From NCBI RefSeq assembly GCF_003334335.1, contig NZ_QOWQ01000076.1: a stretch of DNA of 5,578 nucleotides; one strand, written 5' to 3'. How positions within the stretch are numbered: position 1 is the first letter of the stretch; every line of letters starts with the position of its first letter. This DNA comes from Escherichia coli. Its GTDB lineage: Bacteria; Pseudomonadota; Gammaproteobacteria; Enterobacterales; Enterobacteriaceae. Made by a program: the position numbers and the translations under genes. Shown in pieces: positions 1-5,578 of the stretch. The notes beneath the pieces are model-generated. The model made no database searches, had not been told where the DNA came from, and saw only the letters and a program-made list of their open reading frames with translations.

Positions 1-82
1 CTTTATTATCGAGTTCGGTGACCGCCTGGACGGCCACTTCTGAGAAAAGGTATTTACACAGAATCCTGAACAGGCTCCCGTA

Positions 83-118
83 AAGCGGCAACTTTATTGA
101 GTTGCCGCTTTTTTATTC
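83..118 (+). terminator. Rho-independent terminator-like hairpin in the intergenic region downstream of ycaK
   Basis: Inverted repeat AAGCGGCAACT (83-93) / AGTTGCCGCTT (100-110) with 6-nt loop TTATTG, followed on the + strand by a run of seven T then ATT (109-118). On the - strand the stem is followed by only TTTA, so it looks mainly like a terminator for a + strand gene entering from the left (pflA expected by synteny), possibly shared with ycaK. Confidence 0.6.
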
Positions 119-153
119 CGCGCTTCATTCTGCTACAGCGTTTTTAACACATC

Positions 154-744
154 TTATAGTGCATCTACCATATCCCGTACCTGAGATAATAACGACTGAT
201 AATAGCTCGCGTGAAGTTCTTCCCCATCGAATACCACTGTATTACACAAGAAAGTGACATCGGCATCTTCAATACCAAGATAACTGCACATATTTTTTAA
301 ATAATCGCTTATATTTTTTTCCCAGCCCATCTGGACAAATGATTCTTTGTCTCCTCCAACCAGCGCCACCCAACGAACTTTATTGAATGGTAATTTGTGC
401 CCATCTCCATAAGCCAGCCCATTATTCCATACTCTGTCAATATATCCTTTTAGCATTGCCGGGAAGCTGTACCACCAGAGAGGAAAAACCACCACTAACG
501 TGTCATGTTCAAGCAGCTCTGAATAAAGCTGATGAACCTCTGGAGAATAACGTTTATCCATATTCTTCCAGTCTGGTTCATCTTCCGGCGTCATCACTGG
601 GTTGAAATTACGCCGATATAAATCGAGTTCCGTCACCTGTATTTTCCGCTCCATTGCCCGCTGATGGATCGCATCAGCAATATGTGCGGTCAATGAATCA
701 TGACGAGGATGGGCCCATACCAAATAAATACGTTCAGACTGCAT
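154..744 (-). CDS. ycaK: Flavodoxin-fold NAD(P)H dehydrogenase (quinone)-like oxidoreductase, 196 aa
   Basis: ORF of 196 codons, ATG at 744-742, TAA at 156-154. GGAGG Shine-Dalgarno (complement of 752-756) sits 8 nt upstream of the ATG. N-terminal RIYLVWAHPRHDS resembles the AHP motif of the KefF/KefG/MdaB flavodoxin-like quinone reductase family. Length and sequence agree with my recollection of E. coli YcaK; neighbours match the expected order. Confidence 0.88.
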   Translation of the reverse strand: MQSERIYLVWAHPRHDSLTAHIADAIHQRAMERKIQVTELDLYRRNFNPVMTPEDEPDWKNMDKRYSPEVHQLYSELLEHDTLVVVFPLWWYSFPAMLKGYIDRVWNNGLAYGDGHKLPFNKVRWVALVGGDKESFVQMGWEKNISDYLKNMCSYLGIEDADVTFLCNTVVFDGEELHASYYQSLLSQVRDMVDAL

Positions 745-843
745 AATTTTACCTCCACGTTAAGTTCTGGAGCGCACTTTACGCAGGCGGCATAATCCTG
801 TAAACGTGATGATTCAGGATGAGTTAATGAAGGATTTTCACTA
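745..843. promoter_or_regulatory. Divergent ycaK/ycaN promoter region with candidate LysR-type operator dyad
   Basis: 99-bp spacer between divergent start codons. Candidate ycaK promoter on - strand: -35 TTTACA (complement of 799-804), 17-bp spacer, -10 TAAAGT (complement of 776-781). Candidate ycaN -10 CATAAT at 791-796 on + strand, and AAGGA RBS at 830-834 nine nt before ATG 844. Dyad ATCCTG (795-800) N14 CAGGAT (815-820) overlaps the ycaK -35. All hexamers were found by eye and are not experimentally supported. Confidence 0.35.
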
Positions 844-1752
844 ATGCGGATGAATATGTCTGACTTTGCCACTTTCTTTGCCGTGGCCCGTAATCAAAGC
901 TTTCGTGCAGCGGGCGATGAGTTAGGCTTATCCTCGTCCGCCATTAGCCATAGTATTAAAACACTGGAACAACGTCTTAAAATTCGCTTATTCAATCGGA
1001 CAACCCGAAGCGTATCGTTAACGGAAGCGGGTTCTAATCTCTATGAACGATTGCGCCCAGCTTTCGACGAAATTCAGATCATGTTAGATGAGATGAATGA
1101 TTTTCGTCTGACACCGACAGGAACGCTCAAAATCAATGCCGCCCGGGTAGCTGCACGTATATTTTAAATGTCTTTACTGGTTGGTTTCACACGTGAATAT
1201 CCTGATATTAAAGTCGAGCTCACAACTGACGACTCTCTTGTCGATATCGTCCAACAGGGCTTTGACGCTGGCGTTCGACTTAGTTGCATCGTCGAAAAAG
1301 ATATGATCAGCGTGGCGATCGGCCCGCCAGTGAAATTATGTGTAGCAGCAACGCCAGAGTACTTTGCAAGATATGGCAAACCCCGCCATCCTCATGATCT
1401 GCTTAATCATCAATGTGTTGTTTTTCGTTATCCCAGCGGCAAACCTTTCCACTGGCAATTTGCAAAGGAGCTGGAAATTGCTGTCGCAGGAAATATCATT
1501 CTGGATGATGTTGATGCTGAACTGGAGGCCGTTTTGATGGGTGCTGGTATCGGGTATCTGCTCTATGAACAGATCAAGGAGTACCTTGATACTGGTCGTT
1601 TAGAATGTGTACTGGAAGACTGGAGCACAGAGCGTCCAGGCTTCCAGATCTATTATCCAAACCGCCAGTATATGTCCTGCGGCTTGCGCGCATTTCTCGA
1701 TTATGTAAAAACGGGTCAGATCTGCCAGAGTCAGCGTCACCGACCACAATAA
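844..1752 (+). pseudogene. ycaN: LysR-family transcriptional regulator interrupted by in-frame TAA at 1165-1167 (N-terminal HTH fragment 844-1167, effector-domain fragment 1168-1752)
   Basis: One reading frame from ATG 844 to TAA 1750-1752 spans 303 codons; codon 108 is TAA (1165-1167) and is followed immediately by ATG 1168 in the same frame. The 107-aa fragment carries a typical LysR winged-helix HTH (FRAAGDELGLSSSAISHSIKTLEQRLKIRLFNRTTR). The 194-aa fragment begins in the LysR linker/substrate-binding region (LLVGFTREYPDIKVEL). 107+1+194 = 302 codons, the size I recall for intact E. coli YcaN, so this is a point nonsense change rather than a frameshift. Confidence 0.75.
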
Positions 1753-3183
1753 TTATTTACTATTCGCTTTACGCGCCAGCAGCGGGAATATCAGTCCTAA
1801 TCCTACCAGCACAAACGGCGTTGCAACATTCAGCGCCAACTGGAAGGTCCACTCTGCAGTGAAGGCTTCCATTTTCGGGAAGATCCCCGTCAAACAGGCA
1901 AAGGCGGTAAAGGCAAAACACCAAATCCCGACGGTCATTGCCAGAGGCTTATTACGAATAAAGACATATTCTGGTTTATATTTCTGCGCCAAGCGAACGA
2001 CTGCAATAAATGCAACAAATACCCATAAATAACGCAGCGGCATCACTACCGAATTAAGGTTCAACAGCCATTTATAGAGATTGTTCATATCACCAATGCC
2101 GAGAGTCGGCAGCATAATCAGAATCGCCACCAGTACCAGGGTCAGAAAATAGCCATTAACGGGCGTACCAGAAGCGTTGGTACGACATAAACTGGCTGGA
2201 ATATATTTGCTGTCAGCATCACCTAATAGCACTTTAAGCGGGGCATCAATCGAGAATACCAGCGCCGCTACTTGTCCCAGGGTATTCGCAATGGCGTAAA
2301 TCACCATTAAAGTATTACCCATGTTGTAATACTCGCCCAGCTTCTGAAAGGCGTAATACTGACCGTTGGTCATTAAGTCATCCGGGATATTACGCGAATC
2401 AAACATCATCCCCATCGCCAGCGAGCCCAGAATGGCACAAACCGCAACCATCACCGCCAGGCATAACATCCCTTTTGGAAATTCTTTTCCTGGGTTGCGC
2501 GTTTGATTAACGTAAGGAGAAATCTTCTCTGCTCCGCCAACCGCGAAAACCAGCATTGAAATAGTGGTAATGTAGGTAAAGTCGATATGAGGAATGAACG
2601 TTTCCCAGGTAATGTTTGTGGTCGCAATATGCACTTCAGTAATTGCAGGCGCGGTTACCGCCATCGCCACATACAGGAGCGACATAACAAACATAGCAAT
2701 CCCTGCCACAGAACCGACGATTTTCAGCGATTTCATACCGCGTGAAGCAACCCACATAAAGAAGATAAACAGCACCAGCGTTAACCCCTGTAACGCTACG
2801 ACTGAATATTCTTTGATTAGCGAACCGTCGCCTTTCATCGCCCAACCGAGCGCAATCAGAATTGCCTGGGGTTTTTGTGCCAGATAGGGAATATGCACCA
2901 CCCAGTAGGTCCACGCGGCGAGATAAGCCAGTCCGGGTCCCATCGTGTGTTTAATCCAGGTACTGACCCCGCCCTTCCCATCTTTGAAGGTCGAGCCTAA
3001 CTGACCAACAATTAGCGCATAAGGTGTGAAATAGAGTGCAAAGATAAACACCCATGAAAAAACAACCACCAGCCCCTGGTTGGCATAGTTATTAACAACG
3101 TTGCCAAAACCCCAGACAGTGATAAAAGACATCAGCGCAATGTTGTACCATCGCAACTGTTTTTCCTGAACATTCCCAGCCAT
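1753..3183 (-). CDS. ycaM: Putative APC-superfamily permease (amino acid/organocation transporter-like), 476 aa
   Basis: The long - strand ORF ends with TAA at 1755-1753. The biological start is taken as ATG 3183-3181 (MAGNVQEKQLRWYNIAL...), which has AAGGA 9 nt upstream and gives 476 aa, the length I recall for YcaM. The protein is highly hydrophobic with multiple predicted TM segments. The ORF-track start at 3375 is a GTG inside the ycaD terminator stem and is rejected. Confidence 0.85.
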   Translation of the reverse strand: MAGNVQEKQLRWYNIALMSFITVWGFGNVVNNYANQGLVVVFSWVFIFALYFTPYALIVGQLGSTFKDGKGGVSTWIKHTMGPGLAYLAAWTYWVVHIPYLAQKPQAILIALGWAMKGDGSLIKEYSVVALQGLTLVLFIFFMWVASRGMKSLKIVGSVAGIAMFVMSLLYVAMAVTAPAITEVHIATTNITWETFIPHIDFTYITTISMLVFAVGGAEKISPYVNQTRNPGKEFPKGMLCLAVMVAVCAILGSLAMGMMFDSRNIPDDLMTNGQYYAFQKLGEYYNMGNTLMVIYAIANTLGQVAALVFSIDAPLKVLLGDADSKYIPASLCRTNASGTPVNGYFLTLVLVAILIMLPTLGIGDMNNLYKWLLNLNSVVMPLRYLWVFVAFIAVVRLAQKYKPEYVFIRNKPLAMTVGIWCFAFTAFACLTGIFPKMEAFTAEWTFQLALNVATPFVLVGLGLIFPLLARKANSK

Positions 3184-3267
3184 AGACAAATCCTTCGCCA
3201 AAATTAAAGGGGCATCTGTAAAACGAGGGATTATGCGCGGCAAATAAGAAGTGCGGAAATAGCGAAA

Positions 3268-3305
3268 TGCAAAATTATAACCTGCTGCACATTTTATTTT
3301 TAAAC
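3268..3305 (-). promoter_or_regulatory. Candidate sigma70 promoter for ycaM
   Basis: Perfect TATAAT on the - strand (complement of 3274-3279) about 90 nt upstream of ycaM ATG, with an AT-rich upstream region (3291-3305) but no good -35 hexamer. Located downstream of the ycaD terminator, so ycaM is probably transcribed independently. Confidence 0.3.
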
Positions 3306-3340
3306 GAATAAAATTTGGAATAAAGCAAGTCAGATAGAAG

Positions 3341-3384
3341 AAACAAAAAAGCAGAGTGTGAAACAGTAAGTTCACACTCTGCTT
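3341..3384 (-). terminator. Rho-independent terminator of ycaD
   Basis: Perfect 14-bp inverted repeat AAGCAGAGTGTGAA (3349-3362) / TTCACACTCTGCTT (3371-3384) with 8-nt loop. On the - strand the stem is followed by TTTTTTGTTT (complement of 3341-3350). It starts 9 nt after the ycaD stop codon (3393-3395). Confidence 0.8.
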
Positions 3385-3392
3385 GAATTCAT

Positions 3393-4541
3393 TTACACGT
3401 GAGCAACGGGTTTCGGCGTATGACCGGCGTTGCGCAGCAGCATCAGCAAATAGATAAACGATACGCTGGCGATCATGATAAACAATAAATTATCGGAGAA
3501 ATTCTGCATTAGCATAGCGGTAAATGACGGGCCAAGCAGACTTCCCACAGTATAGCTCAACAGTAAGGCCTGGTTCATCGCCACCAGTTGATGATGTTCA
3601 ACTTTCTCGCAAGCCCATGCCATCGCCACCGGATATAGCGTAAAGCCAGCGGCACCGAGGATGAATAACGCTGGGGCCATCGCCGCCTGGCTAAGCATCG
3701 CGATACTGCCGAGAATGACGACAAAGACCTGAACACGCAACACCAGCAGTCGACCAAACTTATCCGCCAGACGTCCAATCGGCCATTGTCCAAGGATACC
3801 CGCACTGACCAGTACCGCCATCCAGAAACCAATGCTGGCATTGCTCACCCCTTTGTGATTGAGGTACAGCGGCATCAGGCCATATAGAGATCCCAGAACG
3901 ATTCCTGAGATAATGCAGCCATTCACGCCAAGCCGCGCCTGACGGAGTTTTAGCATTGACGTAATTGACGTCGAATCATGGTTTTCAGCCTGCTGATTCA
4001 GCACACGCGTAAACAACAGCGGTAAGATCCCTGCCAACGTCAAACCTGTAACCCACGGCAATACGGACATCAGCTCGGTTGAAACTTTGCTGACCAGTAA
4101 CTGGCCTAAAAACGTTCCCACGTAATAAACCATCATATACGCAGCAAGCAAACGCCCACGGTTACGTGACGTCCCACTGCACATCAGCGCGCTCTCAACA
4201 ACCACCCAAATCATGGCACAGCCGACGCCCGCGACAAAACGCCAAGCCAACCAGCTCCAGAATCCAATCATCAGGCCAAGGCCGGCACAGCCAGCGGCAA
4301 AAATGAAGGAGGCCAGATAATAGCTGCGGTTAAAGCCAATGCGCTTAATGACATACCCTGTCAGCAATGTACCGACAAGGTTGCCGGTAAAATAGGATGA
4401 GCTGACAACGCCTACCTGCCATGTGGACATGTGTTCCTGGGCGAGCCAAAGCGGCACGAGTGTATTTAACACCGCAATCGCCAGAGTCAACAAAAGCAGG
4501 CCAGACAGCAAAAGCATGACAGGCTGGGTATACGTGGACAT
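3393..4541 (-). CDS. ycaD: Major facilitator superfamily transporter, 382 aa
   Basis: ORF of 382 codons, ATG 4541-4539, TAA 3395-3393. Contains the MFS signature motif A between predicted TM2 and TM3 ([13 protein letters not shown]) and about 12 hydrophobic segments. Length and sequence match my recollection of E. coli YcaD. The Shine-Dalgarno is weak: no GGAGG-like element in the 15 nt before the ATG. Confidence 0.9.
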
Positions 4542-4854
4542 GAATTAAAACCGTGAGGAAGTTCAAATTTCATGCGCATCATGCCACCGCCAAAAACATT
4601 GTCAATGGGTGAAAATACGCGATATCCCAGCGGCGGTATTATCGATTAATATTACTCATTCATAACGCTAATGCTGAAGAGATGATTAGTCTCATCTGAT
4701 TGTTTTTATTGAACTAACACAAATTTCATACGCTTCGTTCAGTCGAAAAATTTCATGGTCACAGCAAACTCATATTTCCCGTCTATGCTTTCAGAGCAAT
4801 GCATCGCGTCTGATCGATTTCAGACGTACCACTGACTCTCGAAAGGAGAAGAGG
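4542..4854. promoter_or_regulatory. 313-bp divergent ycaD/ycaC control region
   Basis: AT-rich non-coding spacer between divergent start codons. TTGTCAA at 4599-4605 gives a perfect -35 TTGACA on the - strand (complement of 4600-4605) for ycaD, with a weak -10 CATGAT 16 nt downstream. AAATTTCAT occurs three times (4565-4573, 4721-4729, 4748-4756). Strong AGGAG RBS 5-9 nt before ycaC ATG 4855. No convincing ycaC -10/-35 pair was found by eye. Confidence 0.35.
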
Positions 4855-5481
4855 ATGACCAAACCGTATGTTCGTCTTGATAAAAATGATGCTGCCGTTT
4901 TGCTTGTTGATCACCAGGCTGGTTTACTTTCCCTTGTACGGGATATCGAACCCGATAAGTTTAAAAATAACGTGCTGGCGCTGGGTGACCTGGCTAAGTA
5001 TTTCAACTTACCAACTATTCTTACCACCAGTTTTGAAACCGGTCCTAACGGCCCATTAGTTCCAGAACTGAAAGCACAATTCCCCGATACACCTTACATT
5101 GCTCGCCCGGGAAATATTAACGCCTGGGATAACGAAGATTTTGTAAAAGCTGTCAAAGCGACAGGTAAAAAACAGTTAATTATTGCCGGTGTGGTAACCG
5201 AAGTTTGCGTGGCATTCCCGGCGCTTTCAGCCATTGAAGAAGGGTTTGACGTCTTTGTCGTGACTGACGCGTCAGGGACCTTTAATGAAATTACCCGGCA
5301 TTCGGCATGGGATCGCTTGTCGCAAGCTGGTGCGCAATTGATGACATGGTTCGGCGTGGCGTGCGAGCTGCATCGCGACTGGCGTAATGATATTGAAGGA
5401 CTGGCGACGTTGTTCTCTAACCACATTCCTGATTATCGTAATTTGATGACCAGTTATGACACGTTAACGAAGCAGAAATAA
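4855..5481 (+). CDS. ycaC: Isochorismatase-family (cysteine hydrolase) protein, 208 aa
   Basis: ORF of 208 codons with AGGAG Shine-Dalgarno, ATG 4855, TAA 5479-5481. Carries the isochorismatase-family signature: LLVDHQ with the catalytic Asp at residue 19, and a Cys in VVTEVCVAFPA consistent with the catalytic Cys of the Asp-Lys-Cys triad. Length and sequence match my recollection of E. coli YcaC. Confidence 0.9.
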   Translation: MTKPYVRLDKNDAAVLLVDHQAGLLSLVRDIEPDKFKNNVLALGDLAKYFNLPTILTTSFETGPNGPLVPELKAQFPDTPYIARPGNINAWDNEDFVKAVKATGKKQLIIAGVVTEVCVAFPALSAIEEGFDVFVVTDASGTFNEITRHSAWDRLSQAGAQLMTWFGVACELHRDWRNDIEGLATLFSNHIPDYRNLMTSYDTLTKQK

Positions 5482-5515
5482 AAGAGAACCGGGGCCGAAA
5501 CCCATAAGCGCTAAC

Positions 5516-5578
5516 TTAAGGGTTGAACCATCTGAAGAATGCGACGCCTCGGTGCCTCGTTAAGACGATGCCTCGCGT
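5516..5578 (-). CDS. Possible 3' end of a convergent gene, truncated by the window edge (dmsC expected by synteny)
   Basis: The last 60 nt are GC-rich and open on the - strand up to the window edge in two frames: one ends ...TRGIVLTRHRGVAFFRWFNP with stop at 5518-5516, the other ends with stop at 5513-5511. I cannot tell from sequence which frame, if either, is real, and I could not match it to a remembered protein C-terminus. Confidence 0.25.
   Translation of the reverse strand, partial: TRGIVLTRHRGVAFFRWFNP

Follow-up and report, generated by a model that had tools for sequence, protein, structure and literature searches.

Identity of the sequence downstream of ycaC

The last part of the window (the whole stretch of 5,578 nucleotides of Escherichia coli DNA that was analysed) raises the question of what follows the ycaC gene at this locus. 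The initial annotation, which was made from the letters alone, regarded the tail at 5482-5578 as a spacer without a canonical terminator that may run straight into the coding sequence of a convergent gene. The current work leads to a different answer: the region after ycaC is almost certainly a junction between the chromosome and the insertion sequence IS186 (IS421, IS4 family), the insertion of which split a hairpin located between ycaC and dmsC.

Gene order in the window, taken from the list of open reading frames and from the RefSeq annotation of near-identical loci, is ycaK (-), ycaN (+), ycaM (-), ycaD (-) and ycaC (+). The ycaC stop codon had been placed at 5479-5481, which agrees with the open reading frame found at 4855-5481. 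Coordinates of the features on this side of the window are collected in Table 1. The sequence of strain 720632 is identical to the window over 5200-5578 and has 4 mismatches to it over 77-5578. Besides a nonsense change in ycaN, only three differences are found in the longer stretch, at positions 115, 4648 and 4780. The first of these, CGCTTTTTTATTCC in the window against CGCTTTTTTTTTCC in 720632, is a change within the T-run after the pflA/ycaK hairpin.

Table 1. Features at the ycaC end of the window (positions in window numbering; strand given where one applies)
Feature	Position	Strand	Remarks
ycaC coding sequence, isochorismatase-family cysteine hydrolase	4855-5481	+	Stop codon 5479-5481; seen in the list of open reading frames and annotated by RefSeq at loci without differences in the compared stretches
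Surviving 5' arm AACCGGGG of the ancestral hairpin	5487-5494		Partner CCCCGGTT lies beyond the IS, outside the window
Target-site duplication GGCCGAAACC, 10 bp, ycaC-side copy	5493-5502		Same 10 bp at both element ends in four complete genomes
IS186/IS421 right end, first 76 nt	5503-5578	-	Non-coding, downstream of insL; 100% identity to the element; cut by the window end
IS186 terminal inverted repeat CATAAGCGCTAACTTAAGGGTTG, 23 bp	5503-5525		End distal to the transposase start; holds AGCGCT and GGGTT
GCCTCG, three copies	5546-5575		Starts at 5546, 5554 and 5570, spaced 8 and 16 nt; subterminal non-coding IS186

Absence of a terminator and the small symmetries of the tail

A GC-rich stem-loop followed by a T-run, the criterion for a rho-independent terminator, is absent from 5300-5578 and occurs only in the uninserted allele. 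The terminator scan of both strands of 5300-5578 returned 0 terminator-like sites, with 0.3 expected, and a promoter and terminator scan of the window tail returned no sites. When folded as RNA, the tail does not exceed its dinucleotide shuffles in stability, either on the plus strand of 5470-5578 (z -0.73) or on the minus strand of 5482-5578 (z -1.01), and a scan of 4500-5578 against Rfam gave zero matches at E<=1. Thus, the scan and the folds bear out the claim that no canonical terminator follows ycaC. The terminator is missing because the IS186 insertion split the hairpin.

The small sequence features that had been noticed in the tail are explained by the junction between target DNA and IS186. 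AACCC at 5499-5503 and GGGTT at 5520-5524 were located exactly, and both pair in the minimum-energy fold. AACCC is target DNA that abuts IS186, and GGGTT is found, together with AGCGCT, inside the inverted repeat of the element. Because the tail folds no better than its shuffles, the pairing of the two is incidental, one of target DNA against an IS repeat. The palindrome AGCGCT does exist, at 5507-5512 instead of the 5506-5511 first assigned to it. Three copies of GCCTCG likewise exist; the middle one had been placed correctly at 5554-5559, and the outer ones belong at 5546-5551 and 5570-5575 rather than at 5545-5550 and 5571-5576. The tail had also been described as GC-rich from about 5516, a description with little to recommend it: GC content is 54% at 5516-5578 and 56% at 5482-5515, against 47% for the whole window.

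No further copies of GCCTCG were found elsewhere in IS186 or in the window. When 5482-5578 was shuffled with dinucleotide composition kept, any 6-mer occurring at least three times appeared in 70 of the 5000 shuffles (1.4%), and the repeat is therefore mildly unusual. As a sign of coding sequence or as a functional array it was rejected, given this frequency and its location in a non-coding IS186 end. The copies of IS186 are essentially identical.

The tail of the window as the right end of IS186

A similarity search with 5200-5578 gave a match in every E. coli genome and up to 23 places per genome, plasmids included; therefore, part of this query is repeated. The end of IS186 at 5504-5578 was found at 8422 places in 2144 of the 5426 complete E. 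coli genomes, with 740 of the places on plasmids and nearly all at an identity of at least 99%. The number of places per genome has a median of 3 and reaches 22. IS186 is thus multi-copy and differs in location between strains, on chromosomes and on plasmids, as is characteristic of a mobile element.

At the 720632 locus, the RefSeq annotation has, in this order, ycaC, a minus-strand 'IS4-like element IS421 family transposase', dmsC, dmsB and dmsA. The element, 1339 bp long and flanked by a direct duplication of GGCCGAAACC, has perfect 23-bp inverted repeats and shows 100% identity to MG1655 IS186A. Its 370-aa transposase scores 133 bits against the NCBIfam model NF033592 (IS4 family), for which the cut-off is 115. 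The repeat CATAAGCGCTAACTTAAGGGTTG is perfect at both ends of the full element and identical to that of IS186A in MG1655; past it, the window contains 53 more bases of non-coding IS186 end.

Four complete genomes with IS186 at this site were examined, three with the junction of the window and one with the opposite orientation. In all four, a complete element of 1339 bp lies between matching duplications and dmsC comes next; the second inverted repeat is located about 1.34 kb away in them, which is beyond the window edge. The window itself holds only 76 nt of IS186, and the far end of the element, the second copy of the duplication and dmsC are deduced from other genomes. The locus is a member of IS186/IS421 and carries every defining feature of the element that is visible in the window. 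The features that would fall outside it (second repeat, transposase and second duplication copy) appear in the genomes that have IS186 here.

Compared with IS186A, IS186B and IS186C (insL1-3) of MG1655, the 76 nt and the 23-bp inverted repeat of the window match exactly. The genomes bearing the junction also share with these copies the 370-aa IS4-family transposase and the geometry of the 10-bp duplication, which consists of GG, a 6-nt core and CC. The only difference is chromosomal location, as the ycaC/dmsC site of MG1655 is empty.

As had been supposed, ycaC is followed by a convergent gene, which is insL. Its coding sequence occupies the window-equivalent positions 5674-6786 on the minus strand, and its stop codon (5674-5676) comes 192 nt after that of ycaC and lies 96 nt outside the window. 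An unannotated open reading frame of 46 codons, MVIWSLQ...MVQPLS, also appears on the minus strand at window-equivalent 5511-5651 (ATG 5651-5649, stop 5513-5511). It spans the IS186 right end, stops inside the terminal inverted repeat, and has no support as a gene.

The empty site and its ancestral hairpin

In MG1655, a spacer of 34 bp separates ycaC from the convergent dmsC and reads TAA-AAGAGAACCGGGGCCGAAACCCCGGTTGTTATGA-TTA. The spacer contains the hairpin AACCGGGG-CCGAAA-CCCCGGTT, which the scan of MG1655 reported as terminator-like on both strands. The hairpin is followed by the T-rich tail CTCTTTTATT on the dmsC strand and by the weaker GTTATGATTA on the ycaC strand. Folds of the empty site are dominated by this hairpin, with energies of -18.9 and -17.2 kcal/mol and z values of -4.5 and -3.5. 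The ancestral hairpin therefore looks like a bidirectional intrinsic terminator common to ycaC and dmsC. With the poor T-tract GTTATGATTA on the ycaC strand, the hairpin may always have terminated ycaC transcripts inefficiently. A search of the literature found no paper on a ycaC/dmsC terminator.

Several properties of bidirectional intrinsic terminators can be recognized in the ancestral 34-bp spacer, such as one GC-rich stem of 8-9 bp and the T-rich flank on the dmsC strand. Unlike in such terminators, the structure has been destroyed in the window, where the 5' arm and the loop are left together with two bases of the 3' arm (5487-5502).

The target-site duplication is represented in the window by one copy of GGCCGAAACC (5493-5502), and the second copy was seen in other genomes only. 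When IS186 and one copy of the duplication are removed from the occupied allele, the MG1655 sequence is obtained exactly. Two parses of the site are equivalent: an IS of 1339 bp with a 10-bp duplication, or an IS with CC/GG at its ends and a duplicated 6-bp core, CCGAAA (5495-5500). The latter corresponds to the description of Lee et al. (2016, PMC5009759), and the three IS186 copies of MG1655 (A, B and C) show the same ambiguity. These authors reconstructed 59 insertion sites and derived from them the IS186 target motif 5'-GGGG(N6/N7)CCCC-3'; they counted no more than 19 N6 sites in K-12 and described insertion of IS186 in either orientation. The core of the empty site, GGGG-CCGAAA-CCCC, both as reconstructed and as observed, fits the N6 form of this motif.

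Distribution of the insertion and recurrence at one site

The ycaC/dmsC site is empty in 5340 of the 5426 complete E. coli genomes, MG1655 included. The exact junction of ycaC with IS186 in the orientation of the window was found in 32 complete genomes, and a search with a synthetic junction detected the opposite orientation at the same base in 31. The one genome of opposite orientation that was examined has the same 10-bp duplication. Two orientations in such numbers (32 and 31 genomes) at exactly the same position mean that the ycaC/dmsC hairpin is a recurrent hot spot of IS186, occupied in 63 genomes (about 1.2%).

Hot spots of IS186 have been described before, such as the lon promoter in E. 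coli B (SaiSree et al. 2001, cited in PMC3045373). The present site agrees with the published ones in its N6 motif target and in recurrent insertion in both orientations. It differs from them in context, for the published hot spots are located in a promoter (lon) or in coding sequence (fimA, menC), whereas this one is located in the spacer of two convergent genes, in a hairpin that would serve both as terminator. The literature search found no paper naming both IS186 and ycaC. Little of the biology is new; public annotated genomes already contain IS186, its target motif and the same insertion.

In the window, the ycaN gene (844-1752, plus strand), which encodes a LysR-family regulator, has an in-frame stop at 1165-1167, where TTA is changed to TAA (T1166A) at codon 108 of 302. 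This nonsense allele occurs in 34 of the 5426 complete genomes, and RefSeq treats the gene as a pseudogene with an 'internal stop'. The complete genomes closest to the window share this allele. Two of the 34 were examined, one of which differs from the window by only 2 mismatches; in both, the site is empty and the match to the window breaks off exactly at 5503. Because these near-identical relatives have the empty site, the insertion in the source strain is probably an independent and recent event.

Two further variants of the neighbourhood were encountered. In OkiPb01695 (NZ_AP042570.1), the ycaC-side match is annotated beside dmsB, suggesting loss of dmsC. In ECCTRSRTH03, dmsC is interrupted by an insertion of ISEc52, an IS3-family element (11663-12831 of the locus examined).

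Window ends and alternative explanations

The other end of the window is also formed by an insertion sequence. Positions 1-76 are the end of IS1414 (IS256 family) and have no match to the pflA-ycaK region of any complete genome. At the junction (76/77), IS1414 is joined to the pflA-ycaK spacer, 4 nt beyond the place of the pflA stop codon and on the upstream side of the hairpin AAAGCGGCAACT...AGTTGCCGCTTTTTT. None of the complete E. coli genomes contains this junction, with 0 records covering 80% or more of window 1-200. The overlap with a repeated element is thus exactly 76 nt at either end of the window (IS1414 at 1-76, IS186 at 5503-5578). The window looks like a whole short-read contig of the form expected from de Bruijn-graph assembly at k=77, with IS1414 at its left and IS186 at its right. 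Its end at 5578 would accordingly be an assembly break and not a biological boundary. Since the contig is bounded by IS copies, its ends are uninformative on neighbouring gene order.

A contig of this kind invites the explanation that the IS186 end arose in assembly, as the chimeric end of a contig, and that the strain has no IS186 beside ycaC. Ends that run 76 nt into repeats are typical of de Bruijn-graph contigs, and both examined complete relatives with the ycaN allele have the empty site. The junction, however, is at the exact base where IS186 is inserted in 63 independent complete genomes, in a canonical GGGG(N6)CCCC target, and a random chimera would not recreate a biological junction to the base. 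A contig, moreover, extends k-1 bases into a repeat only where reads span the junction. Such an artefact is therefore highly improbable. It is also very unlikely, if a little less so, that the IS186 end is real and belongs to an element that was truncated, or recombined with another copy, leaving ycaC no longer beside dmsC at the endpoint of an inversion or deletion. No more than 76 nt of the element are visible in the window, IS186 is multi-copy (median 3, up to 22 places per genome), and the match beside dmsB in OkiPb01695 suggests rearrangement or deletion at this locus; against this, all four examined genomes, three with the same junction and one with the opposite, have the full 1339-bp element and then dmsC.

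The original reading of 5516-5578 as the last part of a convergent gene, here taken as a protein-coding gene of the host that ends 30-35 bp from ycaC, has next to no probability left. The minus strand had been described as open to the window edge, which is correct for two of its three frames (open from 5514 and 5519, with stops at 5511-5513 and 5516-5518) and incorrect for the third, which has a stop at 5560-5562. Twenty open codons on this strand are no evidence of coding. When the window is extended with the 720632 sequence, all three minus-strand frames close, at 5582-5584, 5674-5676 and 5730-5732, and a repeat element stands where the coding sequence was expected; the annotated transposase itself ends at 5674. 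The initial annotation had itself named such an outcome in advance as one that would refute its reading. RefSeq has no annotated CDS over the IS186 end in the four occupied genomes examined. The distance of 30-35 bp coincides with the uninserted locus, where dmsC does end 34 bp from ycaC, but the sequence in the window is not dmsC: from 5503 it is the non-coding terminus of IS186, to which the tail is 100% identical.

Predicted consequences of the insertion and a wider hypothesis

With the junction of the chromosome and IS186 as the preferred reading, IS186 inserted into the GGGG-CCGAAA-CCCC hairpin, duplicated GGCCGAAACC, and cut the shared terminator in half. Transcripts of ycaC would then read into IS186 in the direction antisense to insL, perhaps only as far as a terminator-like site some 575 nt beyond the ycaC stop. 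The first such site on the ycaC strand of IS186 is GCCGGAAAGGGAGCTCCGGC-TTTTTT, at window-equivalent 6056-6075, a match to the consensus only. From the other side, dmsABC transcripts that have lost the hairpin would enter insL in the sense direction. Loss of the shared terminator could alter antisense transcription and the 3' ends of ycaC and dmsABC transcripts, and insL could come under read-through from dmsABC. In practice, the region is better annotated as an IS186 end with a target duplication than as a gene tail or a spacer without a terminator, and the ycaC/dmsC hairpin can be used as a natural marker of IS186 activity.

The relation between the target motif and terminators may not be limited to this locus. 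The empty sites of the three IS186 copies in MG1655 were reconstructed and are located at dnaJ/hokC, hokE/entD and nupC/pdeA. All three are hairpins just downstream of genes, with stems longer than GGGG/CCCC (about 8 to 15 pairs in predicted folds), and the nupC/pdeA site, AAAAAAGCCGGGG-ATAATT-CCCCGGTTTTTTT, is a perfect textbook bidirectional terminator. A hairpin at a gene 3' end, with a stem that goes well past the 4-bp motif, is thus found at 4 of 4 reconstructed IS186 sites (ycaC/dmsC and three in K-12), a sample too small to generalise. We suggest only tentatively, and with rather more doubt than confidence, that the IS186 motif GGGG(N6/7)CCCC is in practice the apex of intrinsic-terminator hairpins at the 3' ends of genes.

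Why the few target sites of IS186 persist is a question left open by Lee et al. (2016, PMC5009759). If the suggestion is true in general, the target sites would persist as functional terminators. Each insertion of IS186 would then remove a terminator of the host and expose the transposase gene to host read-through. At the locus described here, this read-through would come from the dmsABC operon, which is anaerobically induced.
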